A stretch of DNA of 64,000 bases from assembly GCF_044324875.1 (NCBI RefSeq), contig NZ_CP172185.1, one strand, 5' to 3'. The stretch is from Escherichia coli. GTDB taxonomy: Bacteria; Pseudomonadota; Gammaproteobacteria; Enterobacterales; Enterobacteriaceae. The translations under genes and the position numbers were made by a program. Below the pieces are notes generated by a model. That model made no database searches. It was not told where the DNA came from and saw nothing but the letters and a program-made list of their open reading frames with translations. Below are positions 1,259-37,575 of this stretch, in pieces; positions within the stretch are counted from its first letter, which is position 1; the number at the start of each line of letters is the position of its first letter.

Positions 1259-2048
1259 ACTTAAAGAGCCGTTTGCCACGTTATGGCGCGGAAAAGATCC
1301 TTTTGAGGAAGTTAAAACTTTGCAGGGTGAGGTATTTCGTGAACTGGAAACTCGCCGTACTCTGCGCTTTGAAATGGCGGGCAAAAGCTATTTTCTCAAA
1401 TGGCATCGCGGCACGACCCTGAAAGAGATAATCAAAAATTTACTCTCATTGCGGATGCCAGTATTAGGCGCAGACCGCGAATGGAATGCGATTCATCGAC
1501 TGCGGGATGTCGGCGTTGATACTATGTATGGGGTGGCATTCGGCGAAAAAGGCATTAATCCGCTGACCAGAACCTCGTTTATTATAACCGAAGATCTGAC
1601 ACCAACCATCAGTCTGGAAGATTACTGTGCTGACTGGGCGACTAACCCTCCAGATGTTCGCGTAAAGCGTATGCTTATTAAGCGTGTCGCGATGATGGTG
1701 CGCGATATGCATGCTGCGGGCATTAACCACCGTGACTGTTATATCTGTCATTTCCTGCTGCACTTGCCTTTTTCCGGTAAGGAAGAGGAGTTAAAAATTT
1801 CGGTAATTGACCTGCACCGGGCGCAGCTTCGCACGCGCGTTCCACGTCGTTGGCGCGATAAAGATCTTATTGGGCTTTATTTTTCTTCGATGAATATTGG
1901 CCTGACTCAGCGGGATATCTGGCGGTTTATGAAAGTGTATTTTGCCGCCCCGCTTAAAGACATTCTCAAGCAGGAACAAGGACTGCTGTCGCAAGCAGAA
2001 GCAAAAGCCACAAAAATCAGGGAAAGAACGATTAGAAAATCGTTGTAA
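1251..2048 (+). CDS. waaP: LPS core heptose kinase
   Basis: ORF track starts at 1242; trimmed to MVELKEP giving 265 aa as in WaaP; overlaps waaG stop. Confidence 0.88.
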
Positions 2049-2090
2049 CCCGTAACTTATTTTTGCCAAAATTTTGGATACAGAATAAAT

Positions 2091-3098
2091 ATGTCTCAAC
2101 TCAATGATAGTGACATCATCCTTTTTGAGTATAACTTTCATTATCAAAATATAAGATCTAAAAATACTCTTGATATCGCATTTGGTATTGACAGAAATTT
2201 TCTTTTTGGATGTGGTGTAGCCATCGCATCTATTCTATTAAACAATAGCGAAATCTCTTGTGAATTTCATGTTTTCACAGATTATATCAGTGATAAAGAC
2301 AAGTTATATTTTTCCGATTTAGCAAAACAATATAATTCAAGAATTAATATTTATGTTATCAATTGTGATAAGCTGAAGTCATTACCAAGCACGAAAAACT
2401 GGACTTACGCTACATATTTTCGATTTATAATTGCAGATTATTTCTATAATAAACATGAAAAAATACTATACCTTGATGCAGATATTGCTTGCAAGGGTAG
2501 TATTAAAGAACTCTTAGATTATCAATTCTCTACTAATGAAATTGCCGCAGTTGTAGCTGAAAGAGATGTTGAATGGTGGCAGAATCGAGCCTCGGTATTA
2601 ACTACACCACAATTAGCTTCTGGATATTTCAATGCTGGTTTTTTGCTGATAAATATTGATGAGTGGAATCTAAATAACATTTCGTCAAAAGCTATTGAAA
2701 TGTTGCGTGACCCAGATTGGGTAAGTAAAATCACCCACCTTGATCAAGATGTACTGAATGTATTATTGAATGGTAAAGTGAAGTTTATTTCGGGGAAATA
2801 TAATACCCGATATAGTATTAACTATGAATTAAAAGACAAAGTTGATAATCCAGTCAATGATGACACCGTGTTTATACACTATGTGGGACCTACAAAACCC
2901 TGGCATGAGTGGGCTGATTATCCGGTGTCACGTAGTTTTTTGATCGCCAAAGCAGCTTCTCCGTGGTGTAAAGAAGATTTACTTAAACCTGTGAATAGCA
3001 ATCAGTATCGGTATTGTGCAAAACATAAATTTAAACAAAAGCATTATATGGCAGGCATTTTTAATTATTTAAAGTATTATAAAGAAAAATGCTTCTAA
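2091..3098 (+). CDS. waaI: LPS outer-core alpha-1,3 glycosyltransferase, GT8 family (WaaI/WaaO type)
   Basis: 335-aa GT8-like protein directly after waaP; AT-rich; name assigned from R3-type gene order. Confidence 0.7.
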   Translation: MSQLNDSDIILFEYNFHYQNIRSKNTLDIAFGIDRNFLFGCGVAIASILLNNSEISCEFHVFTDYISDKDKLYFSDLAKQYNSRINIYVINCDKLKSLPSTKNWTYATYFRFIIADYFYNKHEKILYLDADIACKGSIKELLDYQFSTNEIAAVVAERDVEWWQNRASVLTTPQLASGYFNAGFLLINIDEWNLNNISSKAIEMLRDPDWVSKITHLDQDVLNVLLNGKVKFISGKYNTRYSINYELKDKVDNPVNDDTVFIHYVGPTKPWHEWADYPVSRSFLIAKAASPWCKEDLLKPVNSNQYRYCAKHKFKQKHYMAGIFNYLKYYKEKCF

Positions 3099-3123
3099 AG
3101 ATTTAAGGTTAAAATAATTCATT

Positions 3124-3831
3124 ATGATATATAATAAAACGATAAATGGGTTGAAAGTTTTCATAAAAGATAATGATCCCTTTTATGAGCAAGTGCTGAA
3201 TGACTTTTTAACTTGCAGGGTTAAAACATTAAAAGTTTTTCGTTCTATTGATGATACTAAAGTCATTCTTATTGACACTGCTCGTGGACCTCTTGTACTT
3301 AAAGTTTATGCGCCAAAGCATAAAATGATCGAACGTTTCTTAAAATCTTGCGTAAAAAAAGATTATTATGAAAATTTAATTTATCAAACCGATCGGGTAC
3401 GTGGTGAAGGCATTCAATCAATTAATGACTATTTTTTGCTTGCTGAACGTAAAACATTAAATTTCGCGCATTATTATATTATGCTCATTGAGTATATTGA
3501 AGGTGTCGGGTTAAATGAGTATTTGGAAATTTCTGAAGATCTGAAGGAACAATTATCAGAATCGATAAAAGAGTTGCATCAGCATGGAATGGTGTCTGGC
3601 GATCCTCATAAAGGAAATTTTATAGTATCCGAAAAAGGTTTAAGACTAATTGACCTTTCAGGTAAAAAAACAACCGCAGTTTTAAAAGCAAAAGATCGCA
3701 TTGATCTTGAACGGCACTATAATATAAAAAATGAATTGAAAGACTTTGGCTATACATATCTCATATTCAAAAAGAAAATTAAAAAAGCAATCAGGGATGT
3801 AAAAGTAAAACTAGGATTGAAGAGCAAATAA
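3124..3831 (+). CDS. waaY: LPS core heptose II kinase
   Basis: 235-aa kinase-like protein, size and position as WaaY. Confidence 0.7.
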   Translation: MIYNKTINGLKVFIKDNDPFYEQVLNDFLTCRVKTLKVFRSIDDTKVILIDTARGPLVLKVYAPKHKMIERFLKSCVKKDYYENLIYQTDRVRGEGIQSINDYFLLAERKTLNFAHYYIMLIEYIEGVGLNEYLEISEDLKEQLSESIKELHQHGMVSGDPHKGNFIVSEKGLRLIDLSGKKTTAVLKAKDRIDLERHYNIKNELKDFGYTYLIFKKKIKKAIRDVKVKLGLKSK

Positions 3832-3855
3832 TGATTATGATGAAGGGTAATTAAA

Positions 3856-4869
3856 TTGGATTTTAAACATCTTACTCAATTTAAAGATATAATTGAACTG
3901 GACAAGCGCCCCGTTAAACTTGATGAACGGGAAACGTTTAATGTCTCATGGGGTATTGATGAGAACTACCAGGTTGGGGCTGCGATTTCAATTGCTTCAA
4001 TTCTTGAAAATAATAAACAAAACAAATTTACCTTTCACATAATCGCTGATTACTTAGACAAAGAGTATATTGAATTATTATCACAATTAGCAACGAAGTA
4101 TCAAACAGTAATTAAATTATATCATATTGATTCTGAGCCATTGAAGGCGCTACCTCAATCAAATATCTGGCCAGTATCTATTTATTATCGTTTGCTTTCA
4201 TTTGATTATTTTTCTGCGCGATTGGATTCATTATTATATCTTGATGCTGATATCGTCTGTAAGGGTTCATTGAACGAGTTAATAGCATTAGAGTTTAAAG
4301 ATGAATATGGGGCTGTGGTAATTGATGTAGATGCTATGCAAAGTAAAAGCGCTGAGCGTTTATGTAATGAGGATTTTAACGGTAGCTATTTTAACTCTGG
4401 TGTAATGTATATTAATTTACGGGAATGGTTACAACAAAGACTAACGGAGAAATTTTTTGATCTATTATCAGATGAGTCAATTATCAAAAAATTAAAGTAT
4501 CCGGATCAAGATATTTTAAACTTAATGTTTTTACATCATGCTAAAATATTACCGAGAAAATATAATTGTATTTATACTATAAAGTCAGAATTTGAAGAAA
4601 AAAATAGTGAATATTACACCCAGTTTATTAATGATGAAACTGTCTTCATACATTATACTGGTGTAACTAAGCCATGGCATGATTGGGCGGACTACGCATC
4701 TGCAGATTATTTTCGTAATATTTATAATATATCTCCATGGAGAAATATACCTTATAAAAAAGCTGTTAAAAAACATGAGTACAAAGAAAAATATAAACAC
4801 TTGCTTTACCAGAAAAAATTTCTCAATGGTGTTTTTACAGCAATTAAATATAATGTTATGAAAGGTTAA
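3856..4869 (+). CDS. waaJ: LPS outer-core alpha-1,2 glycosyltransferase, GT8 family (WaaJ type)
   Basis: 337-aa GT8-like protein; frame opens after TGA at 3841-3843 and first start codon is TTG at 3856. Confidence 0.65.
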   Translation: MDFKHLTQFKDIIELDKRPVKLDERETFNVSWGIDENYQVGAAISIASILENNKQNKFTFHIIADYLDKEYIELLSQLATKYQTVIKLYHIDSEPLKALPQSNIWPVSIYYRLLSFDYFSARLDSLLYLDADIVCKGSLNELIALEFKDEYGAVVIDVDAMQSKSAERLCNEDFNGSYFNSGVMYINLREWLQQRLTEKFFDLLSDESIIKKLKYPDQDILNLMFLHHAKILPRKYNCIYTIKSEFEEKNSEYYTQFINDETVFIHYTGVTKPWHDWADYASADYFRNIYNISPWRNIPYKKAVKKHEYKEKYKHLLYQKKFLNGVFTAIKYNVMKG

Positions 4870-4877
4870 TATTCGAG

Positions 4878-6020
4878 ATGGTTGATAAAATAATATTTAC
4901 AGTTACTCCTATTTTTTCAATTCCTCCCCGCGGAGCGGCCGCTGTTGAAACGTGGATGTATCAGGTTGCTCAGCGTACCAATTTCCCAAATCGCATTGTT
5001 TGTATCAAGAATCCAGGATACTCAAATTACACCTTTGTTAATGATAATTGTAGTATTCATAGGGTTGGATTCAGTCGCATATATAAGCGGTTATTTCAAA
5101 AATGGACAAGACTTGATCCTCTACCATATTCACAGAGAATATTGAATATTGCCCATGATTTTCCTATAACGAAAGAAAGTGTTATTGTAGTTCATAATAG
5201 CATGAAGCTATACACTCAAATTCGTAAGCGAGCTCCTCAGGCAAGAGTGGTTATTCATATGCATAATGCATTTGAACCAAAATTGCTTGAGCAAAATGTT
5301 AAAATGATAGTGCCTAGTTTATACTTGAAAAAGTATTACCAATCTTATTTAGCAAATGCAGATATTGAGATTGTACCAAATGGAATTGATTTAGAAACCT
5401 ATCAATCTACTTTTCAGCCGATCACTAGAAGCGAACTTAATATCTCCCCTGAAGAGAAAATTATTTTTTATGCTGGGCGTATCGTCCCTGACAAAGGCAT
5501 ATTACTGTTGATGCAATCATTCGAAAAATTGGCCGTTGCTCACAAAAATTTAAAATTAGTTGTGATTGGTGATTATACAGAAATGAGTAAAAGTGACAAA
5601 GGTGCATATCAACACAATGTCAGGGAAATTGCAAAACGTTTGAAGGATCGTTGCATTATGTTAGGAAGCATACCGCCTGAAAAGATGCATTGTTATTACC
5701 CACTGGCAGATTTAGTTGTCATTCCTTCCCAGTTCCAGGAACCATTTTGCATGGTGGCAATTGAAGCTATGGGGGCTGGTAAGCCTGTTTTAGTGAGTAC
5801 GCGTGGGGGGATGACGGAATTTGTCAAAGAAAATACTACGGGATTCCATTTAAAAGAACCTATGACTGCAGACTCCATAAGCAGCGATATTTTAAAAACG
5901 TTAGCGAATCCTGAATTAACAGCAGTTGCAAAGCAAGGTCAGGATTTTGTGTTTGATCACTACAGTTGGGATGGCGTAACTCAAAGATTCGAAGAGGTCA
6001 TTCATAATTGGTTTGAATAA
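4878..6020 (+). CDS. waaD: LPS outer-core glycosyltransferase, GT4-like (WaaD of R3-type clusters)
   Basis: 380-aa glycosyltransferase as last gene of the waaQ operon, convergent with waaL. Confidence 0.6.
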   Translation: MVDKIIFTVTPIFSIPPRGAAAVETWMYQVAQRTNFPNRIVCIKNPGYSNYTFVNDNCSIHRVGFSRIYKRLFQKWTRLDPLPYSQRILNIAHDFPITKESVIVVHNSMKLYTQIRKRAPQARVVIHMHNAFEPKLLEQNVKMIVPSLYLKKYYQSYLANADIEIVPNGIDLETYQSTFQPITRSELNISPEEKIIFYAGRIVPDKGILLLMQSFEKLAVAHKNLKLVVIGDYTEMSKSDKGAYQHNVREIAKRLKDRCIMLGSIPPEKMHCYYPLADLVVIPSQFQEPFCMVAIEAMGAGKPVLVSTRGGMTEFVKENTTGFHLKEPMTADSISSDILKTLANPELTAVAKQGQDFVFDHYSWDGVTQRFEEVIHNWFE

Positions 6021-25717: not shown

Positions 25718-26490
25718 GCGTTTTTCTCCCTCGAATGCTCATTATGGTCACCAGGCAGGCGGGTAATGCGTGCATGGCGAGCTTGATCTTCATCGAATCG
25801 TTTCATGGTAGTGTGAACAAAGCTAAGGTGCGCCATCATTGCTTTACGCGCCCCGTCAGCATCACCGGCAAAAATGGCGTCAATGACTGCCTGATGTTGT
25901 TCGGTCAGCTGTGAAAAAACCGGGGGTACCAGATACATCCGCTGGCGGCTATGCTTCACAGAGGATTGCAGGACATCGAAGAAACCGCGCATGGTTTGCA
26001 GCAGCACGATGTTATGTGAGGCTTCGGCAATCGCCAGATGAAAACGAACGTCCGCTTGTGAGGCGAGATCCGGGTCTTCACTTAGCGTTGCTTCAAAGCA
26101 AAGCTGAATTTTCTCTTTTTCGCCTGGTGTGGCGCGCATTGCCGCATGCCACGCGGTGCTGGCTTCAATGGCGTAGCGGGCTTCCAGAATATCGAAACTG
26201 TAATCCGGATCATCGGCCATCAGCGTTTTCAGCGGCTGGACGATGTTTTGCTCCGACCATGTGTCATGACGCCAGCGAATAAACGTCCCGCCGCCGCGTC
26301 GACTAAGCAGCACGCCTTCGCTCACCAGTTTTGCCAGCGCCTCGCGCAGTGAATTACGCGATACGCCGAGTTGCATCGCCAGTTGACGTTCAGCGGGCAA
26401 CTTCATGCCCGCCTCCAGGTTTTTTTCATCAATCAGCGCCCGCACACGATCGGCAACCTCGTCTGACAGGCGTCTGGGTAAAACAATCAT
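25714..26490 (-). CDS. lldR: GntR-family regulator of the lld operon
   Basis: Trimmed to [11 protein letters not shown] (258 aa); overlaps lldD start. Confidence 0.9.
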
Positions 26491-28145
26491 TAAGGAATCA
26501 TCCACGTTAAGACATAAGCCTGAAGCGTGGTGATCACGCCCACCATACAGGTGAAGATCAGGCTGTGTTTGACGGTAAAGCGGAACAGATCTGACTCTTT
26601 GCCTACCAGGCCTACCGCCGCACAGGCGATAGCGATAGATTGCGGAGAGATCATCTTACCGGTGACACCACCGGTGGTGTTGGCGGCAACCAACAACAGG
26701 TCAGAAACGCCAATTTGTTGTGCTGCAGTGGCTTGCAGGGCGGCGAACAGGGCGTTAGATGAGGTATCCGATCCGGTCAGGAAGACACCAAGCCAGCCGA
26801 GGAACGGCGAGAAGAAGGTGAATGCATGGCCGGTGTGCGCCAGTGCCAGCGCCAGCGTTGATGATAGTCCGGAATAGTTCGAGATAAAGGCGAACGCCAG
26901 CACCATACCGATGGAGTAGATAGGCAGAGCCAGTTCTTTCAGCGTGCTGCCGAAGGTGCTGATAGCGTCAGATGGTTTCATCTTCAGCCAGACAATCGAG
27001 AGCAGGGCAGCAAAAAGAATGGCGGTACCGGTGGCAGAGAACCAGTCGAACTTAAACACGGCGGCATACGCTGTCGCTTCGCTGACCACTGGCGGCATAC
27101 GGGCAACCAGTTTATCGAGGTACGGCACCGGAATATTGATCACCCATTCATACAGCGCACCACCCGAAGCGAACAGGGCTTTAAACGGTGGAATACTCCA
27201 CAGCGTTACGGTGGCGGTCAGGAACAGGAACGGTGTCCAGGCGCGAAGCACCTGACCTGCGGTGTAACCGGTGTGAGCCAGCGTCATATCAACCTGTGAC
27301 GCCCCCAAGTCACCGAAGCGGAATACGCGCACTGGTTGCCAGCGTTTGAGGAACAGCGTCAGGCAGAGCAGTGATACCAGCGAAGAGATAATGTCTGGCA
27401 GTTCCGGCCCAATGAAGTTAGAGCTGAGGTATTGAGCAATGGCAAACGAACCACCTGCAACCACGACCGCAGGCCACGTCTCTTTGATACCGCGCCAACC
27501 GTCCATAATCGCCATGATCCAGAACAGCACGATAATGGTCATAAACGGCAGCTGACGCCCCACCATCTGACCAATCTCAAAGCTGTCGATGCCTGTTACC
27601 TGCCCGGCGACCAGAATCGGAATACCCATCGCGCCAAATGCCACTGGCGCGGTGTTAACAATCAGGCACAGTCCGGCGGCGTACAGTGGTTTAAAGCCCA
27701 GACCGACCAGTAATGCGGCGGTAATTGCTACCGGTGCGCCAAAGCCTGCGGCTCCTTCAAGGAAAGCGCCGAAACAGAAACCGACGATCAGCATTTGCAG
27801 GCGCTGGTCAGGGGTTATCGAAAGAATAGACGAGCGGATGATGTCAAACTGCCCGGTTTTCACCGAGATCTTATAGACGAACACTGCCGCAATAATGATC
27901 CACGCGATGGGCCACAAACCGTAGAAGAAGCCATAAATCACCGAGGCCAGCGCGTTAGCGACCGGCATTTTATAGAACAGCAAAGCCACGGCAAGGGCGA
28001 TTGCCACCGTCCATGAGGCGGCGACATAACCTTTGAGTTTGAGCTTAATCAGCGCAAAGAAGAAAAACAGGATGGGAAGCGATGCTATCAGGCTGGAAAG
28101 CCAGATATTCCCGGCGGGATCGTAGTTTTGTTGCCAGAGATTCAT
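26490..28145 (-). CDS. lldP: L-lactate permease
   Basis: Trimmed to [10 protein letters not shown] (551 aa); polytopic LctP-family transporter. Confidence 0.93.
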
Positions 28146-28220
28146 TGCAGGTCTCCTGGAGTCCACGCACATCGTGTAATGAGTCTGATGCTCATCTCCT
28201 TGTCACACGTTGTGTAAAAG

Positions 28221-28234
28221 TGGTACTGCCAATT
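28221..28234. promoter_or_regulatory. Candidate LldR operator half-site pair in the lldP upstream region
   Basis: tggtactgccaatt, a TGGT-N-CCA type motif about 80 bp upstream of lldP ATG. Confidence 0.3.
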
Positions 28235-28344
28235 GTGTTGTGTAGGGATAATGACAATGAATGGTTAACTAAATGTTATGCATTGGCAACATTGATGTGA
28301 GTTTTAATTGGAGATCTGTGAACCAGAGGTCAGATAAGCGAAGA

Positions 28345-28359
28345 ATTGGTAGGGCCAAT
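28345..28359. promoter_or_regulatory. Candidate LldR operator (perfect inverted repeat)
   Basis: attggtagggccaat: ATTGG-N5-CCAAT palindrome about 200 bp upstream of lldP ATG. Confidence 0.4.
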
Positions 28360-28382
28360 CTTGGTGGAGGGAGATGTCTGGT

Positions 28383-28418
28383 AAAGAAAAGGGCAATCCT
28401 CATCAGAGAATTGCCCTT
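28383..28418 (-). terminator. Intrinsic terminator of the adhesin gene
   Basis: On the minus strand, stem gggcaat/attgccc followed by a T-run, about 25 bp after the stop. Confidence 0.7.
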
Positions 28419-28441
28419 AGTCACACTAAGTTAATGGATCA

Positions 28442-31400
28442 TTACCACTGAATACCGGCACCGAGTGCGGCGGAGTATTCACCCTGGCTATTGGTACTAC
28501 CTTGTAATTTGTAGACCCAACGACCATTGGCGCTCACCATCGACACACCTAAAGCAACAGCCGATTCACCATTGTAAGTACCGCCACCAATAGAGGCCAT
28601 GCTGGCACCTGGAGTGTAAGCCTGCGGCAGACCGGTCATTGCCATTGCAGAAGCGATACCACCGCTCAACTTGCTTTCGGTTTTGGACAGTTTGTTATCC
28701 ATCTCAACCATCCGCTGATCGGTGTATTGCTTCGTTTCCTGCACGCTTTGCTTCAACTGCGCATAGTTCACTGCGTCGTTGTTGTTGACGCCAGCAGAGA
28801 CGTTGCTGATGCGAGTCGTACCGCCATTACCACCACCGAGAGTGATGTTGCTGTAGTCTATAGAACCATCAGCTTTGGTGTCGTAACGAACGCCGCCTGC
28901 CTCAGAAGACTTCAGCTGCGAAACGTTAACCGCATCGGTGGCATTAACACCTGCAGCAACGTTGGTGATACGACGCTGGTTGGTAGAAGAACCCACAGAG
29001 ATGGTGTTTTCTTCGTTGGCCACGGAACCGGTACCCAGCGCGACGCTGTTGTCAGCGGCAGCAATGGAACCAGAACCAATTGCAACACTGTCTTTACCCT
29101 GCGCGTTGGCATCTACGCCATCGGTGTTGGTCTTGAAGTATTTGGTGCTACCGGTGGTTACGATATCGCCAATGCCGTTTTCGATATTGGTAACGCGAGT
29201 ATCCAGATTCGTCACCTGATTGTTCAGGTTAGTAATGCTCTGGGTATTCTGGGAAACCTGCGCGTCCGTTACTTTCAACTGACCCACGTTAACCGCATCG
29301 GTATCAGCCGAACCAGCCGCGACGTTGGTGATCTGACGTTGACCGTCTTCACTGCCGACAGAGAACTCACCCACAGAGTTCTGCGGTGCGTCCATGTTGT
29401 AGGCGGCGTAGCCAGTTTGAGCACCACGAGTCGTCTGTGAGCCATTACCCATAGCAATGCTGTTTGCATGGTTTGCACGCGCGTTGCTACCGATAGCAAT
29501 GCCATTAAGTGCATTCGCGTCCACGTAGGCACCATAACCGATACCAATACCCGCATTACCATTAACGATAGTTTTCGCGCCCATTGCTAGCGAGTCTTCA
29601 CCTACTGCCAGTGAATCTTCTTCCGTTGAGTTGGCGTGGAAGTATTTGGTCGGCGTGGTAGCGACTGCACCAATGGCATTTTGCAACTGGCGAACCGTAA
29701 CGGCGTCATGGGCTTCGGAACCATCGGCTACGTTGATGATTTGACGATATTTACCGTCATCACCAATAGACAACGCACCAAGTAGTTCGCCATCCGTGGT
29801 GTCATAACCAATCACAACACCTTCTTCCGACACGCTGGTGTCACGAGAACCTTTAACTATTACACGGCTGGAAACGGAACTGCTACCCAGGGCGATACCC
29901 GTATCAACGGAGCTGCTGCTACCTTGACCAATGGCTACGCTGCTTTCGCCTGAGGCGACAGCGTTATAACCCACAGCCGTAGCGCCAATACCTGAAGCGC
30001 TGGCATCGTTGAACGCTAAGCCGTTGTCGTTGGTACGTACATAGTTAATGTCCGCACCGTTATCTTCGATGTAGGTTTCGCTGGTGTTACCGGCAAGCTG
30101 ATTGATGATTTCGCTGTTCTGCTGGATCAGCATATTGGTGTTAAACAGCTGAGAACCGTTGATGGCGTCAGTGCTGCCTTCGCCAATGTTACCATCAGCA
30201 ACATTTGTGATGATGCTGGCCTTGCCGTCATGGCTGGCGTTGTAGGCACCTGCGCCGTCATTGGCTGTTGCATCCCACAGCAGAGCGTTATCGTCGAGCG
30301 CATCCAGGGCGTCACCGACGTTGTTGTACTCGGCATTTGCAATGGTGTAACTCGGCGCAGTGATAGTGCCATCAGCGTTGACTTCTGCGTCACCACCCAG
30401 CGCATCAGCGATGTACTTGTTGGTGGTATACAGTTGTGAACCGTTAATGGCATCGCTGCTGGTGGAGGAAATTGCACCGTTAGCGACGTTAGTGATTACA
30501 CTGGCTGTTTTATCTTTTCCGTGAGCGGCGCTAAATGCACCATTACCATCATTGGCTGTGGCATCCCACAGCAGGGCGTCATCCAGCGTGGTATCGATCG
30601 CTTCCAGCGCGTCACCGACGTTGCTGTAACTGCCGCCAGCGATGGCATAAGTCGGTGCGGTGATTGTGCCGTCAGCATTGACTTCTGCGTCACCACCCAG
30701 AGTATCGGCAATGTACTTGCTGGTGTCATAGAGCTGTGAGCCGTTAATAGCGTCGCTGCTGGTAGAGGAAATTGCACCGTCTGCAACATTAGTAATGATG
30801 CTGGCCGTGTTATCTTTTCCGCGACCGGCGCTAAACGCACCGTCACCGCCCTTGGCGGTCGCATCCCAGAGTAGGGCGTCACCCAGTGATGTGCTAAATG
30901 ACGTGTTAATGGCAGCCAGAGCATCACCGACGTTATTGTAGTCAGTACCACCAATAGTGTAGGTTGGCCCGGTTAATACACCCGCATCACTGATATCAGC
31001 ACCACCGCCAAGGTATGACGTAAATGAATCAGCTAAGCCATAAAGTTGTGAGCCATTAATGGCGTCAGTGCTATCAGAGGATACCGTGCCTGCCAGTAAG
31101 TTGGTGATTTTGCTGTCAGTACCGTTGGTGCCGTGTTTGGCACTGAATGCACCCGCCGTAGCGTTCCACAGCAGGGAATCGTCACCGAGACTGTCAACAG
31201 CGTCAGTCAGGTTGGTGATGTTGGTGGTGTTCGTGGCGATATTGGTGGTGTTGGTTGCCACGGCATCGTTAGTGGTTTTCAGCTGAGAGCCGTTTACCGC
31301 GTCAGTGCTGCCAGCCGTCAGGTCACCGTCTTTGACGTTGGTGATTTTGCTGGTGGCTTCGGTACCGTGCGCGGCGCTGAATGCACCCGCCGTAGCGTTC

Positions 31401-33466
31401 CACAGCAGGGAATCGTCACCGAGACTGTCAACAGCGTCAGTCAGGTTGGTGATGTTGGTGGTATTCGTGGCGATATTGGTGGTGTTGGCTGCTACGGCAT
31501 CGTTAGTGGTTTTCAGCTGAGAGCCGTTTACCGCGTCAGTGCTGCCAGCCGTCAGGTCACCGTCTTTGACGTTAGTGATTTTGCTGGTGGCATCAGTACC
31601 GTGCGCGGCACTGAATGCCCCCGCAGTAGCGTTCCACAGCAGTGAATCGTCACCGAGACTGTCAACAGCGTCAGTCAGGTTGGTGATGTTAGTGGTGTTC
31701 GTGGCGATATTGGTGGTGTTGGCTGCCACGGCATCGTTAGTGGTTTTGAGCTGAGAGCCGTTAACCGCGTCGGTGCTGCCAGCCGTCAGGTCACCGTCTT
31801 TGACGTTGGTGATTTTGCTGGTGGCATCAGTACCGTGCGCGGCACTGAACGCGGTGCCATTCCACAGCAGGGCATCGTCTTTAAGGTCGTCAACGGAATC
31901 CGTCAGGGTATTGATACTGTTAGTGTTGGTGGTGATATTGGCAGTATTGGTCGCTACGTTATCGTTGGTGGTTTTCAGCTGAGAACCGTTAACCGCATCC
32001 TTACTGGTATCAGAAATAGCGCCGTCTTTAACGTTGGTGATGGTACTGGTAGTATCTGTACCATGTGCCGCACTATATGCCTTTTTAAGGGAGTCCCATT
32101 GTAACGTATTATTGTCCAGGCCCGTTAAGGCGTCGCCAACAGTGCCGAAAATACCACTTTTCAGCCTGTAATTTGGGGAAGTAACGACGCCTTGCGCATT
32201 GACGGTAGCCCCCCCACCAAGATTGTCCGCTACTGACTTACTGATAGCATAAAGCTGTGATCCATTGATGGCATCAGTACTGGTAGTGCTGATATCACCT
32301 GCTGCCATATTGACAATTTGTCGCTGAGCTGTTGTGTTACCCACAGAAACAGTATCCGCGTCAGTCGCTACAGAACCAGCACCCAGAGCAACTGAATTTT
32401 TCCCTTGAGCACTGGCTTGAGCACCAATTGCAGTGCCATTTTCTAAACCGGCATAACTGCCTTGTCCAAGAGCAATAGCATTTACACCACCTGTAATACT
32501 ACCATTACCCAGCGCGATAGCATTTGCGCCGTCAGCTTTATTCCCTTGACCGATGGCAATTGCGCCAGCCGCTACTGCCTGACTTTGATTGCCCAGAGCA
32601 ATCGTGTTGTCGACATCTGCAATACTGCCGGAGCCCAACGCGATACTATTAAGTCCATTTGCCTCCGCGTTAGTACCAACTGCCGTCGCATTTTCAGCAG
32701 CTTTGCTCTCTGCACCCATAGCAATCGCGTTTGCGGCGCTGGCGGCGGATTGTCTGCCGAATGCGAGGCTGTCTACGCCAGCTGCAGCACTGTTGCGGCC
32801 TACTGCAATCGCGTTAGCTGCAGATGCGGCGCTACTTGCACCCAGCGCCATTGCATATTCTTTCGACGCATTAGCCGTGGCTCCGAGGGCGATACTCATA
32901 ATTCCTAAGGCCTTGCTTTCACGTCCAAATGCGATGGCGTCATCAGCACCAGTCTCTGCGTAATCCCCTTGTGCAATAGAAAATTCACCTGTTGAGTTTG
33001 CATAACGACCAAGTGCGATTGAAAATCCACCCGTTGACGTTGCCGATGCACCTATAGCGAGGCTTCGCTCACCTGCTGAGGTAGTGTTAATCCCTAACGC
33101 CACTGATGCTTCGCCAAGCGAATGGGTCTTAGCGCCGAGGGCTGTTGACCACCTTCCGTCAGCAGTTGCGTGATAACCTACTGCGGTGCTGGAGCCACCC
33201 CCGGTGTCTGTAAAACTATTTGCTTTTACATCTTCACCGATAGCAACCCAGCCTGTTCCTGTTCCCTGGCCATAATTGACGCCCTGACCGTTGTCCCTTC
33301 CTGCCTGAGCCTGTACCCCAAACGACGACAACATTCCCCCAGCAACCAGAGCAGAAATTAACAGCTTACTGCGCCCGGATTTCTTGCCACGGCTCTTCGC
33401 CGTTTCGCTGGCAACGGTGTAACTGCCCGTCGCCGGATTCCAGATAACTTTAAATATTTTGTTCAT
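28442..33466 (-). CDS. Trimeric autotransporter adhesin, YadA-like (UpaG/EhaG/SadA family)
   Basis: 1674 aa; N-terminal extended signal peptide [21 protein letters not shown]; long repetitive stalk with INGSQL-type motifs; C-terminal anchor ending GIQW. Confidence 0.9.
30140..32300. repeat. Tandem intragenic repeat array in the adhesin stalk
   Basis: Roughly 300-bp degenerate units from about 30147, then three near-identical 234-bp copies (motif at 31153, 31387, 31621) and a diverged fourth. Confidence 0.85.
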
Positions 33467-33509
33467 TATTGATGCTCTCTATTCCTTGATATAAGCGCAG
33501 AAGCTGCAT

Positions 33510-34193
33510 TTATTTTTTGTTTTTTCGCTGCCGAGTTTCAGCAGGTTGAACAGTGTCGAACTGGAGATTGTCCATATTGATGGACAACTTCAGATACTTC
33601 AGGTTATTAGGCGAAACGCCTTTTAATGTCAGATTAATGTCTTGCCATTGGCCAGGCATTAATTGCAGAGTGGAATTCATGGTGGTGTTGAAAAGTAATT
33701 GTTGCCACTTTGCCAGAGCTTTGGCATCGGTGGGTCTTTCATTGCCCCATGTCGCATGAAAGCCAATATTTGATACGGGAACGCTTAAAAGGTTAACCAG
33801 CGAAATACGAATAACACTGCCATTTTCAACCGCATCAATAGCCAGCACCCGGCCTGCCAAACCGACCGATCCGTTATTTAAAATGAAATATTGTGTTTGT
33901 GCTGGGTTAAATTCTGTAAAGACAAATTCGTCCTGCTTGTCTTTAACCGCTTTCACCACGCCAGCGAGCGTCTTGGTACTATTTATGACAGTAGTTTGTT
34001 GTTTTTCAAAATGTTCTATCTTTCGCTTATCGAGTTCCTGCTGTTTCTCAAGCGCCTCAATTTTGCTTTTTTGCAACTCTTGCTGTGTAACGAGGTCGTC
34101 GACCTTACTCGCTTTTTCAATATAGTCACACCCTGCCAATAAGCAGAGAGGCACTATTATTAACACGCTTAACAGTGTTTTCTTTAGGTTCAT
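33510..34193 (-). CDS. Coiled-coil lipoprotein, SadB-like putative adhesin biogenesis helper
   Basis: 227 aa; signal peptide with LLAGC lipobox; Q/E/K-rich coiled-coil segment; stop 43 bp upstream of the adhesin start on the same strand. Confidence 0.65.
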   Translation of the reverse strand: MNLKKTLLSVLIIVPLCLLAGCDYIEKASKVDDLVTQQELQKSKIEALEKQQELDKRKIEHFEKQQTTVINSTKTLAGVVKAVKDKQDEFVFTEFNPAQTQYFILNNGSVGLAGRVLAIDAVENGSVIRISLVNLLSVPVSNIGFHATWGNERPTDAKALAKWQQLLFNTTMNSTLQLMPGQWQDINLTLKGVSPNNLKYLKLSINMDNLQFDTVQPAETRQRKNKK

Positions 34194-34750
34194 AGGATGA
34201 ATTCCTTTTCATAATCCCGATACAGTTGATAATTACGGCACAATCATTTTTTTATGAATGATTAGAGTGGAGCATATCCGACAAATAAATTTGTTAGAGA
34301 ATTTTTGTATTAATTGGTTGTGCGAATATGTTATTAAGTGTCAAACAATTTCGGTTTGTGGCCAATAATATTAATCGCGCGGATTTTAATGATCGGTGTC
34401 AATCAATGTCAAATGTTTCACCGGATAAAGATATAGCGGAGGGAAAGGTAAATATTCAGTTGAGTGATGTTTTATTGCGAAGTTTGCGATGCTGATAGAA
34501 AAATTTAAATAATTAATTATGTTTCAAGCATTGATATGCGGTAATTCATTGTTGATATTGATACATCATTATTTAATTTGTACCTGCTTTTCAGAATTTA
34601 GCCTGCTCCGAGCGCTCAGAAGTGTAGGTGGAGTTGAATATATAATGTTAAGAACGTTACAAATATTCGATCTCTGAAACAGGCTCCTGCATGTGCCAGC
34701 AGGAGCGAGTAAATCGTGAGTGGCTGTAATTACAGCGACGAGAAAGGAAC

Positions 34751-35113
34751 TTAAAACGCAGTCTTAGAGAACCCTGTCATCTCTTGCAGGCCCATTTCGC
34801 GGCCCAGCGCGGTCATTGGGTGCACAACGACCAGTCCGCGAACGCTCTTCTTCAGTTTGCCCATATCAGCTTGCTCTTTTTTAGTAATCGCGCGCTGGAA
34901 CGGCATCTTCATCAGCTTCTGTGCTTCCTTACTGAGTTTCTGGCTGTGAACTTCGCGCAGGCGAGCAATTTCTGCTTCCAGAGTGGCTTTCTCTTTTTCC
35001 AGTTCAGCATATTTGTCTGCGGCTTCAACCAGCGACAGATCGGCCTGCTGGTGGCGGATGGCGTCCAGACGATCGCTGAGACGTTTGATTTCGTTTTTTT
35101 CGACTTCTTTCAT
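34751..35113 (-). CDS. yibL: YibL family ribosome-associated protein
   Basis: 120-aa sequence matching YibL. Confidence 0.85.
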
Positions 35114-35396
35114 GTGATGGCTTCTGATAAAGATAAATTTATAGCCCCTAGTATGCGCGACCAGGTGCTTTATTCACAACTGATGACATTGCAATAGTTC
35201 TATAACGTAAACATTAACATGCTTAAAAACTACGCAATTTATTGATTAATTAAGAAATTTAAAGAAAAAAGATAGTTAACAAAAGCGGATGATTATTGAG
35301 GATTGAGCACGTTTTCCTTAATGTCATTTATACCGGGATCTAAACTAAAATTGGCGGCCGCGCATTCCCGGCGCGGGGTTATACGGAGATATCATC

Positions 35397-35617: not shown

Positions 35618-36205
35618 TTACTTTTGGAAGGCTTTTTTTAAGCTGATTTTGGAAATCAGCTCTGTCAGTGAAAGGACCATTGTTGATCGCACAGCCTGTT
35701 GGTAACGCTGAATTTGCATTGCATACAAACTGGAGTCTGCAGGTTCAAACTGTGGCGGCGGTGGTAACGCCGCCACGCAATGCAGTTCACCAAAGGGTCC
35801 AAGGATTTCGTCGTCGGTAAACGCGTACTCGTTGCCGTCGTGATTTAGCTCTTCACGCAATGCCATCAGTAGCTCCGCATCTTCGTATTCCTGGCGGTTA
35901 ATGACGCCCAACCCGTAAATGAGTTTTAAACGCACAGAAAGATCGCCCAGCGGACCGTCGCCGTCGAGTAACGGTTCTACAGCATACTTCACCGCGTAAT
36001 CGTCTTTGCGGAATACCTGAAGCACCAGAAGATTTACCGCCTCGGTCAAAAGCTCGACGGCGGTGATCAGAAAGCTTCGCACGGTTTTGCCAGCATTCAG
36101 ACGCTCAAGCACACGGTTTTCAAAGGCCTGGGTTTGTTCCATTGTTGCCTGCATATCTGACAATCTGTTATTCGGGCGCAGGGTATCCTGCGCCTGGTCC
36201 ACCAT
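35618..36205 (-). CDS. mtlR: Mannitol operon repressor
   Basis: 195-aa protein immediately downstream of mtlD. Confidence 0.88.
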   Translation of the reverse strand: MVDQAQDTLRPNNRLSDMQATMEQTQAFENRVLERLNAGKTVRSFLITAVELLTEAVNLLVLQVFRKDDYAVKYAVEPLLDGDGPLGDLSVRLKLIYGLGVINRQEYEDAELLMALREELNHDGNEYAFTDDEILGPFGELHCVAALPPPPQFEPADSSLYAMQIQRYQQAVRSTMVLSLTELISKISLKKAFQK

Positions 36206-37353
36206 TATTGCATTGCTTTATAAGCGGTTACCGCCTCGGATACAACCTCGCTGTTGGCATCAAGACCGGAAATCTGTGCCAGCGCCGCCTGCGGACCTTT
36301 GTCAGCGATCAGTGCTGCCAGTTCCTGAGCCTGCGGATCATCTTCACTGCGGAAGTGCATTGCAGCGGCAATACCTTCAATCAGGTTTTTATGTGGCAGA
36401 CCATATTCCAGCGTTCCGAGCAGTGGCTTGATCAGACGGTCGCCAGCACTCAGTTTACGCAGCGGCTGACGGCCTACGCGCTCTACATCATCTTTCAGAT
36501 ACGGGTTCTCGAAACGACCGAGGATTTTCCGGATGTACGCCGCATGTTTGTCTGCGTCAAAGCCGTAGCGCTTGATCAATACTGCACCACTTTCTTCCAT
36601 CGCACCTTTTACCACCGCGCGGATTTTCTCGTCGAGAATAGCGTCACGAATGGTCTGATGACCGGCCAGTTTTCCGAGGTACGCGGTTATAGCATGACCC
36701 GTGTTCAGGGTGAAGAGTTTACGTTCGACAAATGCCATCAGGTTGTCGGTTAACTCCATGCCTGGAATGTTCGGCAACGCGCCTTTGAACTGGGTTTTAT
36801 CAACAATCCATTCGCTGAATGTTTCTACCGTCACTTCCAGCGGATCGTTGGTTGCAGAAGCCGAAGGCGGCACGATGCGGTCAACGGCGGAATCGACAAA
36901 GCCAACGTGTTCTTCTACCCACGCTTTGGCATCTTCCGGCAGGGCGTTCATTACATGGCCTTTCAGCTGCGTGGTGCCGCGTACCATGTTTTCACAGGCG
37001 ATGATGTTCAGCGGGGATTCATTACCTTGTTCTTTACGTTTCACCAGCCCTTTGGCGATTGCCGGGGCAATACGTTCCAGCACAACCGGACCAACGGCGG
37101 TAGTGACTAAATCAACCTGAGCAATCAGATCAACGACATCATCACCAATGCTGCTGACGGCATTGACGCCGGAAACGGTATCTACCTGCTCGGTTTCACC
37201 GACCACATGAACCTGATAGCTATGACGGGCATTCAGGGCATCAAGTACCACCTGATTGACATCGGCAAACGTCAGTTGGATACCCGCGTCTGCCAGCAGT
37301 TTACCGATAAAGCCACGACCGATATTACCTGCGCCAAAATGTAATGCTTTCAT
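36205..37353 (-). CDS. mtlD: Mannitol-1-phosphate 5-dehydrogenase
   Basis: ORF track 5'-overextended; true start [15 protein letters not shown] gives 382 aa. Confidence 0.93.
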
Positions 37354-37392
37354 AGTATTAACCTTCATCAATGTTTTTACCCGAGAGGGCTG

Positions 37393-37575
<183 letters not shown>

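Follow-up and report, generated by a model that had tools for sequence, protein, structure and literature searches.

The closest described counterpart of the locus examined here is the sadBA pair of Salmonella enterica, in which the lipoprotein SadB accompanies the trimeric autotransporter adhesin SadA. Salmonella SadB has a trimeric structure, enhances the display of SadA, and is located in the inner membrane, as argued from the Asp at position +2 and confirmed experimentally (Grin et al., 2014; PMC3953254). An independent study of Salmonella SadB/SadA reported that SadB raises display about three-fold (PMC11054257). In Escherichia, Salmonella, and Shigella, the sadBA genes are flanked by the mtl and lld operons, and E. 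coli K-12 has lost sadB and the adhesin gene in one 5-kb deletion; Grin et al., who drew on spacing and co-loss, term the operon a hypothesis (PMC3953254). The SadA relatives UpaG and EhaG belong to a family implicated in biofilm formation and extracellular matrix binding by pathogenic E. coli.

YajI, the E. coli paralogue of SadB (PDB 2JWY), is likewise a lipoprotein with a C-terminal beta-sandwich fold, but it has no adjoining autotransporter gene and shares 14% identity with Salmonella SadB (PMC3953254). TpgA of Acinetobacter is a small periplasm-facing protein whose gene lies beside that of the trimeric autotransporter AtaA and which promotes the display of AtaA, as SadB does for SadA. It differs in its unrelated fold, made up of a BamE-like domain and an OmpA-like peptidoglycan-binding domain, and in acting at the outer membrane/peptidoglycan and not at the inner membrane. 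Only two specific helpers of trimeric autotransporter export have been described, SadB being one of them.

The locus and its two genes

The window, a stretch of 64,000 nucleotides of E. coli DNA (NZ_CP172185.1), carries the following features at this locus.

33510..34193, minus strand: sadB orthologue, inner-membrane lipoprotein of 227 aa (PDB 4C47 match)
28442..33466, minus strand: trimeric autotransporter adhesin (type Vc) of the SadA/UpaG/EhaG family, 1674 aa (Pfam and PDB matches)
31139..31996, minus strand: tandem repeat of 234 bp × 3.7 in the adhesin gene (Tandem Repeats Finder, 90% matches)
30294..30886, minus strand: tandem repeat of 300 bp × 2 in the adhesin gene, aa 861–1058 (Tandem Repeats Finder, 80% matches)
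28421..34749, no strand: segment of 6329 bp absent from K-12-type chromosomes (comparison with strain HS-02)

The preliminary description had placed a 227-aa lipoprotein gene 43 bp before a 1674-aa trimeric autotransporter gene on the same strand, and the coordinates in the ORF list agree exactly, with a gap of 43 bp at 33467..33509. Upstream, yibL (120 aa) ends at 34751, leaving 557 bp (34194..34750) before the lipoprotein gene, and downstream the adhesin gene is adjoined by lldP (26490..28145/28172, minus strand). The K-12 map given in that description, with yibL next to lldP and no adhesin between them, was found in MG1655, where b3602 and b3603 are adjacent and 371 bp apart. The likeness to sadB-sadA proved closer than mere resemblance, with position, gene order, and SadB homology in agreement. 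The yibL/mtl-lldP position, the order of the genes, the Cys-Asp lipobox, and the ESPR/head/stalk/anchor domains are all shared with sadBA of S. enterica, where the spacer measures 44 bp (PMC3953254) against 43 bp in the window.

From gene anatomy, homology, synteny, the lack of internal signals, and the promoter footprint, all observed here, the locus is very probably the E. coli copy of the known enterobacterial sadBA-type operon, the adhesin of which is UpaG in uropathogenic and EhaG in enterohaemorrhagic E. coli. The two-gene unit is thus real and was correctly read at first, and it is an ordinary one: the unit, its mtl-lld location, and the K-12 deletion are already published (Grin et al., 2014; PMC3953254). 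The additions made here are small, namely a sigma-70 promoter footprint, a conserved ATTCTGAAAA block, and exact indel boundaries, and they leave the known picture unchanged. The value for the window lies in correct annotation, as close copies bear no more than the RefSeq labels 'DUF3251 domain-containing protein' and 'YadA-like family protein'.

The kinship of the lipoprotein with SadB was upheld by a match to PDB 4C47 (Salmonella SadB, 'inner membrane lipoprotein'; E=1.3e-70), in which query residues 23–227 align with chain residues 3–207 without gaps over the full mature length, at 53% identity and 76% similarity. The identification rests on this PDB match because Pfam-A and NCBIfam scans of the lipoprotein matched no family; close copies are named 'SadB/YajI family lipoprotein' or 'DUF3251' in RefSeq. 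YajI was not retrieved at E≤1 when solved structures were searched with the lipoprotein sequence. The signal peptide carries the lipobox LLAG/C (Cys22) with Asp at +2, the N-terminus reading MNLKKTLLSVLIIVPLCLLAG/CDY, and Cys-Asp-Tyr is kept in 6/6 aligned homologues having an N-terminus. The protein is hence predicted from its sequence to be lipidated on Cys22 and retained in the inner membrane by Asp +2, the same argument as for Salmonella SadB. An N-terminal coiled coil (approximately residues 30–90) is followed by the C-terminal beta-sandwich domain, an order implied by the gapless alignment to the 4C47 crystal structure. Heptad-like KI..LEKQQ repeats are visible, and the coiled-coil part is only 43% identical to that of Salmonella SadB. 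A pattern of variable coiled coil and conserved C-domain was observed for SadB.

The adhesin begins with an ESPR (PF13018, residues 1–48, E=1.1e-15) and contains YadA_head repeats at aa ∼90–380 and further inside, together with many stalk/neck units (YadA_stalk); head and stalk/neck units together gave numerous PF05658 and PF05662 matches. Its last 61 residues (aa 1614–1674) form a YadA_anchor (PF03895, E=1.9e-19), which Hia anchor structures also match. The C-terminal 420 residues matched the SadA crystal fragments 2YO0 (E=1.2e-134) and 2YO3 (E=1e-90), and the protein shares 67% identity over its full length with EhaG of O157:H7. It differs from S. Typhimurium SadA in length (1674 vs. 1461 aa) and in passenger make-up, having 78-aa repeats of its own; these near-identical stalk units (aa 491–776) are encoded by the 234-bp repeat.

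UpaG and EhaG are positional orthologues of the window adhesin within E. coli, each likewise preceded by the lipoprotein gene and a spacer of 43 bp; relative to them the window allele represents a third sequence class. Its passenger is a mosaic: compared with the JJ1886 adhesin, the C-terminal two thirds are 72% identical and the N-terminal part 50%. In global alignment, the window sadB DNA shows 86% identity to the ST131 JJ1886 gene and 68% to the gene of O157:H7 (87 and 75% by local BLAST).

Seven loci that extend to lldP show the order yibL-sadB-43/44 bp-adhesin-lldP; they come from E. coli (MEI003, JJ1886, and O157:H7), E. fergusonii, Salmonella enterica, and Pseudocitrobacter vendiensis. 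The yibL-sadB-adhesin part was also found in E. ruysiae and P. corydidari. sadB is present in 76% of complete E. coli genomes. K-12 and K-12-type strains lack sadB along with the adhesin gene: the yibL-lldP intergenic region of HS-02, a K-12-type strain, matches the window only at 34750..34810 and 28100..28420, with ∼95 bp of unrelated sequence between the two matched parts.

The AT-rich upstream region and the predicted promoter

The DNA between yibL and sadB contains the following features.

34194..34750, minus strand: AT-rich yibL-sadB intergenic region, presumed H-NS-silenced regulatory region (base composition, literature)
34683..34735, minus strand: two hairpins just past the yibL stop, presumed yibL terminator (RNA fold)
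34588..34597, minus strand: conserved block ATTCTGAAAA, candidate regulator site, ∼180 bp upstream of the -35 (alignment)
34383..34412, minus strand: predicted sigma-70 promoter of the unit (consensus scan and conservation)

The ∼550 bp of strongly AT-rich DNA announced in the preliminary description correspond to these 557 bp, which have a G+C content of 0.35 (0.32 without the yibL terminator hairpins) against a window mean of 0.499 (SD 0.073 in 500-bp windows), i.e., ∼2 SD lower. The region is nonetheless not the poorest in G+C within the window, as values fall to 0.26 at 2000..5000.

The composition is consistent with the repression of UpaG by H-NS, which PMC5012682 credits to Totsika et al. 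(2012), and from composition and literature together silencing is presumed here; AT-rich DNA around the promoter would then keep the operon silent via H-NS under laboratory conditions. None of the papers searched connects sadA/sadB with H-NS in Salmonella. The same composition could instead be the mere trace of a horizontally moving, recombining segment without any silencing role, a reading that agrees with the 42% G+C of sadB, with the 72–87% DNA identity between allele classes within E. coli, and with the lack of enrichment of the H-NS consensus TCGATAAATT (77 matches with ≤2 mismatches in the window vs. 71 expected, one weak match lying in the region). This is nevertheless quite unlikely, as the homologous regions of five other loci also have a G+C content of 0.31–0.35, so that the value holds in 6/6 loci despite 40–67% identity with the window, and as H-NS repression of UpaG is reported in the literature cited above. 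The retention of low G+C despite sequence divergence suggests that composition itself is maintained.

Within the presumably silenced region, the predicted promoter consists of a -35 TTGACA (34412..34407), an 18-nt spacer, and a -10 TAAAAT (34388..34383), and it is the sole 11/12 consensus match in 28100..35300. TTTGACA is invariant and the -10 TAnnAT is kept in 10/10 loci from Escherichia, Shigella, Salmonella, and Pseudocitrobacter, with the surrounding DNA ∼50% identical. The start site is predicted near 34376, which would give a leader of ∼183 nt. Further upstream, the block A(A/T)TC(T/C)GAAAA is kept in 9/9 sequences reaching its position, against a mean column identity of 53% in the alignment. 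Short direct and inverted repeats also occur in this region; as conserved elements they were discarded, being unconserved in the alignments except for one copy that overlaps the ATTCTGAAAA block.

The two hairpins past yibL fold with -28 kcal/mol (34660..34752, minus strand; z=-3.8 vs. shuffles) and would insulate the unit from read-through in their presumed role as a terminator. The simple terminator scan did not list them because their T-run is weak.

That the ATTCTGAAAA block, the invariant promoter, and the unusually conserved DNA that reaches from the 3′ end of sadB across the spacer as far as the start of the ESPR together mark an undescribed, dedicated regulatory input is a tentative and rather unlikely proposition. 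Such an input might take the form of a specific activator relieving H-NS silencing or of a coupling of adhesin translation to SadB synthesis. If true, it would offer a reason why conditions that naturally induce sadBA/upaG/ehaG stay elusive. The search for such conditions could be guided by the invariant promoter, the upstream block, the boundaries of the K-12 segment, and the SadB conservation pattern.

SadB as a putative helper of adhesin export

By homology to Salmonella SadB, the window SadB may assemble as a homotrimer, and once exported and lipidated it would be held in the inner membrane as a coiled-coil trimer facing the periplasm. With its extended ESPR signal peptide, the adhesin would pass the inner membrane via the Sec pathway, and its C-terminal YadA anchor would form a 12-stranded outer-membrane barrel through BAM. 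SadB would raise the amount and integrity of the surface-displayed adhesin, and it may keep the three nascent chains in register, a role that would matter because the stalk has near-identical 78-aa repeats. Trimer, helper effect, and H-NS repression are here carried over from the literature. Against such a transfer from Salmonella speaks the limited likeness of the window SadB to the protein on which the effect was measured, at 53% identity overall and 43% in the coiled coil.

It could be argued that SadB serves an independent function, as is presumed for its paralogue YajI, with the effect on the adhesin incidental or confined to overexpression. The helper effects on record come from inducible overexpression constructs (PMC3953254, PMC11054257), and an intact 227-aa sadB lies beside a frameshifted adhesin gene in Shigella flexneri (where the protein cluster comprises 3260 sequences) and beside a broken one in an E. 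marmotae-like contig. The broken adhesin genes of Shigella, however, may reflect recent decay. sadB strictly adjoins the adhesin gene in every locus examined, a 2026 survey of genes ≤5 ORFs from a trimeric autotransporter found SadB homologues only in Enterobacterales, and K-12 has lost both genes in a joint deletion. An independent function is very unlikely against these observations, and a helper role of SadB in adhesin display is preferred.

The intercistronic spacer and the probable single transcript

Two further features bear on how the genes are expressed.

33467..33509, minus strand: intercistronic spacer of 43 nt, with the purine-rich tract AAGGAATAGAGAG 8–21 nt before the adhesin start codon
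28389..28418, minus strand: intrinsic terminator of the unit, a 13-bp stem followed by UUUUCUUU (terminator scan)

A single transcript would most likely start from the sigma-70 promoter at 34412..34383, ∼183 nt before sadB, continue through sadB and across the 43-nt spacer along the whole 5-kb adhesin gene, and end at the hairpin at 28418..28389. On the coding strand of 28100..35300, the scan returned a single strong promoter-like site, which precedes sadB, and a single terminator-like site, which follows the adhesin gene; a separate promoter and terminator between the two genes, which the preliminary description had named as evidence against a common unit, were looked for in the same scan, and no site of either kind was present there. 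The least likely of the explanations weighed here is that of two separate transcription units, with an adhesin promoter either in the spacer or within the 3′ portion of sadB and with the lipoprotein as no more than a neighbour; signals could be hidden in the unusually conserved DNA that covers the final 240 nt of sadB, the spacer, and the first part of the adhesin gene (mean pairwise identity 0.84–0.98), but no promoter-like site lies on the coding strand from 34383 to 30729, no terminator-like site separates the genes, the spacer measures 43–44 nt in every locus, and both genes were lost together in K-12. Co-transcription of sadB and the adhesin gene is thus the probable arrangement, in which a weak internal promoter inside sadB, beyond the reach of the consensus scan, may also be active.

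The spacer is 84–100% identical to that of the window across genera. It was not retained as a separately conserved element, since conservation is similar on both sides, in the DNA coding for the SadB C-terminus and at the start of the ESPR. The folds of the spacer region (z=+1.2, no significant structure) and of the predicted 183-nt leader (z=+0.1, no more stable than shuffled sequences) led to an attenuator or RBS-sequestering structure being dropped. No match was obtained when the whole window was compared with Rfam at gathering thresholds, and therefore no known RNA element is placed in the leader or spacer. At the far end of the unit, the terminator forms a centroid hairpin of -20.9 kcal/mol (z=-4.6). 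This hairpin is also found in K-12-type strains, the sequence shared with them resuming at 28420.

Gene organization and identity of the two proteins

The preliminary description had placed a 227-aa lipoprotein gene 43 bp before a 1674-aa adhesin gene on the same strand, and these coordinates were confirmed in the ORF table. The features of the unit are listed below.

Features of the sadBA-type unit (coordinates in the window)
34194..34750, minus strand: yibL-sadB intergenic region, 557 bp (yibL, 120 aa, ends at 34751)
34412..34383, minus strand: predicted sigma-70 promoter, TTGACA, 18 nt, TAAAAT, 11/12 consensus positions
33510..34193, minus strand: lipoprotein gene, sadB orthologue, 227 aa (ORF table)
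33467..33509, minus strand: intercistronic spacer, 43 bp (ORF table)
28442..33466, minus strand: trimeric autotransporter adhesin gene, 1674 aa (ORF table)
31139..31996, minus strand: near-identical 78-aa units, 3.7 copies (234-bp repeat), within the adhesin gene
30294..30886, minus strand: two 100-aa units, within the adhesin gene

The unit is flanked by lldD-lldR-lldP on one side, with lldP next after the adhesin gene, and by yibL-yibT-mtlR-mtlD-mtlA on the other. For Escherichia, Salmonella, and Shigella, the adhesin gene has already been described as lying between the mtl and lld operons, with the lipoprotein gene directly upstream in a proposed operon with it (44-bp spacer in Salmonella), and both genes were lost from K-12 by a 5-kb deletion (Grin et al. 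2014, PMC3953254). The likeness to sadB-sadA that had been proposed from the sequence is thus right, with full-length SadB homology and the same gene order and location, and it is already published: location, operon, and K-12 deletion are all stated in that study. The unit is real, correctly read, and already known; this analysis adds no more than the promoter footprint, the boundaries of the indel, and a block of conserved DNA upstream of the promoter.

The N-terminus of the lipoprotein, MNLKKTLLSVLIIVPLCLLAG directly preceding CDY, comprises a basic n-region and a hydrophobic core together with a lipobox whose +2 residue is Asp. The proposed search against SadB detected similarity: among all solved structures there was one strong match, 4C47 ("inner membrane lipoprotein", E=1.3e-70), in which query residues 23-227 aligned to chain residues 3-207 with 53% identity and zero gaps. 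The entry 4C47 is Salmonella SadB (Grin et al. 2014, PMC3953254), whose trimer is built from a coiled coil of nine heptads and three beta-sandwich domains. No family was found for the lipoprotein (33513..34193) in Pfam-A or NCBIfam at any threshold, and a precomputed Pfam domain is absent from almost all SadB homologues; close copies are labeled "DUF3251 domain-containing protein" or "SadB/YajI family lipoprotein" in RefSeq. Alignment of SadB from six loci with 4C47 showed a variable coiled coil (30-71% identity) and a conserved C-terminal domain (57-97%), and the mature start Cys-Asp-Tyr was common to all homologues with an N-terminus. The window lipoprotein has every trait by which the SadB family is defined and that can be checked from sequence.

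The adhesin likewise showed all the sequence-testable defining features of trimeric autotransporters, and Pfam placed ESPR over residues 1-48 and YadA_anchor over the final 61 residues, along with numerous units of YadA_head and YadA_stalk. Its C-terminal 420 residues matched the SadA crystal fragments 2YO0 (E=1.2e-134) and 2YO3 (E=1e-90). EhaG of O157:H7 shared 67% full-length identity with it, and relative to both the ST131 and the Salmonella versions the window adhesin is a mosaic.

Transcription signals and a model of one operon

As described beforehand, the DNA upstream of the lipoprotein gene is strongly AT-rich: the 557-bp intergenic region has a G+C content of 0.35, falling to 0.32 when the yibL hairpins are left out (487 bp), against a window mean of 0.499 (sd 0.073, 500-bp windows). 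A scan for the H-NS consensus with up to 2 mismatches gave 77 matches in the window, where 71 would be expected, and a single weak one in the yibL-sadB region. The lowest G+C in the window, below that of the yibL-sadB region, was observed in 3 kb of coding DNA at 2000..5000 (0.26-0.31).

On the coding strand from 28100 to 35300, the promoter at 34412..34383 was the sole strong promoter-like site, and a hairpin 3' of the adhesin gene at 28418..28389 (-20.9 kcal/mol, z=-4.6) the sole terminator-like site; yibL has its own hairpins directly 3' of its stop codon. A separate promoter and terminator between the two genes, which had been named as evidence against a joint unit, were looked for on the coding strand and none was found. 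Transcription is predicted to start near 34376. Neither the predicted 183-nt leader nor the spacer with its flanks (z=+1.2) folded better than shuffled sequence.

In an alignment of the upstream region from ten loci of four genera (mean column identity 53%), TTTGACA was invariant and the -10 TAnnAT was kept, both in 10/10 loci. The block ATTCTGAAAA at 34597..34588 (minus strand), which lies ∼180 bp 5' of the predicted -35, was kept in all nine sequences reaching it (Escherichia, Salmonella, and Pseudocitrobacter), and the DNA around it was near random identity. Spacer identity to the window across genera was 84-100%; the coding DNA on either side, at the 3' end of sadB and at the start of ESPR, is conserved to a similar degree, so the spacer is not claimed as a separate element.

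One silent operon is the best-supported picture. It draws on what was observed here, namely gene anatomy and homology, synteny, the joint loss of the two genes, the lack of internal signals, and the promoter footprint, and on published work for the trimer, inner-membrane location, helper effect, and H-NS repression; for the last, PMC5012682 reports, citing Totsika et al. 2012, that UpaG is repressed by H-NS. The sigma-70 promoter within the AT-rich DNA would drive sadB and the adhesin gene jointly, as one probable transcript. The lipid would anchor SadB in the inner membrane with the trimer facing the periplasm, and SadB would increase the amount of surface adhesin and its protease resistance. 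SadB has been proposed to help three chains with repetitive stalks into register (Grin et al., PMC3953254), and an independent study found approximately three-fold better display with SadB (PMC11054257). A similar register-keeping role is presumed for the window SadB.

Distribution, deletion, and allele divergence

As stated in the preliminary description, yibL and lldP are adjacent in K-12, the pair being 371 bp apart in MG1655. When the K-12-type intergenic region of HS-02 was compared with the window, homology ended at 34750 after the yibL stop and resumed at 28420, before the terminator hairpin; hence 6329 bp of the window are replaced in HS-02 by ∼95 bp of unrelated sequence. These ∼95 bp, within 3630..4001 of the HS-02 locus (L001), fill precisely the gap from the yibL stop codon to the shared terminator hairpin, and both boundaries are sharp. 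A stretch inside them, GCCGCATCCGGCAAG, looks like a REP element.

The sadB gene was found in 4149 of 5426 complete E. coli genomes, in at least three DNA classes relative to the window copy (≥95%, 80-90%, and 60-80% identity). Protein homologues occurred in Escherichia species, Shigella, Salmonella, and Pseudocitrobacter; a 2026 survey places SadB homologues solely in Enterobacterales. Salmonella enterica, P. vendiensis, and E. fergusonii share the order yibL-sadB-43/44 bp-adhesin-lldP, and E. ruysiae and P. corydidari share it as far as the adhesin gene.

Within E. coli, sadB DNA identity to the window copy was 86% in the ST131 strain JJ1886 and 68% in O157:H7, with flanking yibL/lldP at 94-97%, so that alleles inside the species are as different as those between genera. 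The coiled-coil part varies most (protein identity 45-71% versus 76-97% for the C-terminal domain). This pattern suggests that recombination or diversifying selection may act at the sadB locus.

In an S. flexneri contig (L012, 1080..2228), a frameshifted adhesin gene (382 aa) lies downstream of a sadB whose 227-aa ORF is intact; the S. flexneri SadB cluster comprises 3260 member sequences. Similarly, in an E. marmotae-like metagenome contig (L010, 2228..3684) the adhesin is split (442 aa plus a second frame) beside an intact 227-aa sadB. Recent decay could account for such an arrangement, or it could point to a function that SadB has of its own.

The mtl segment was 99.6% identical to strain ST2747 and ∼97% to most other strains. 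In the mtlA-mtlD gap, a 34-nt stretch (37443..37476) of the mtl query matched many places per genome. The whole query had a median of 24 places per genome, presumably on account of this stretch, and a REP-type element dispersed in the genome is suggested. Because of this stretch, the mechanical mtlD ORF (36205..37536, 443 aa) extends upstream of the 382-aa annotated gene.
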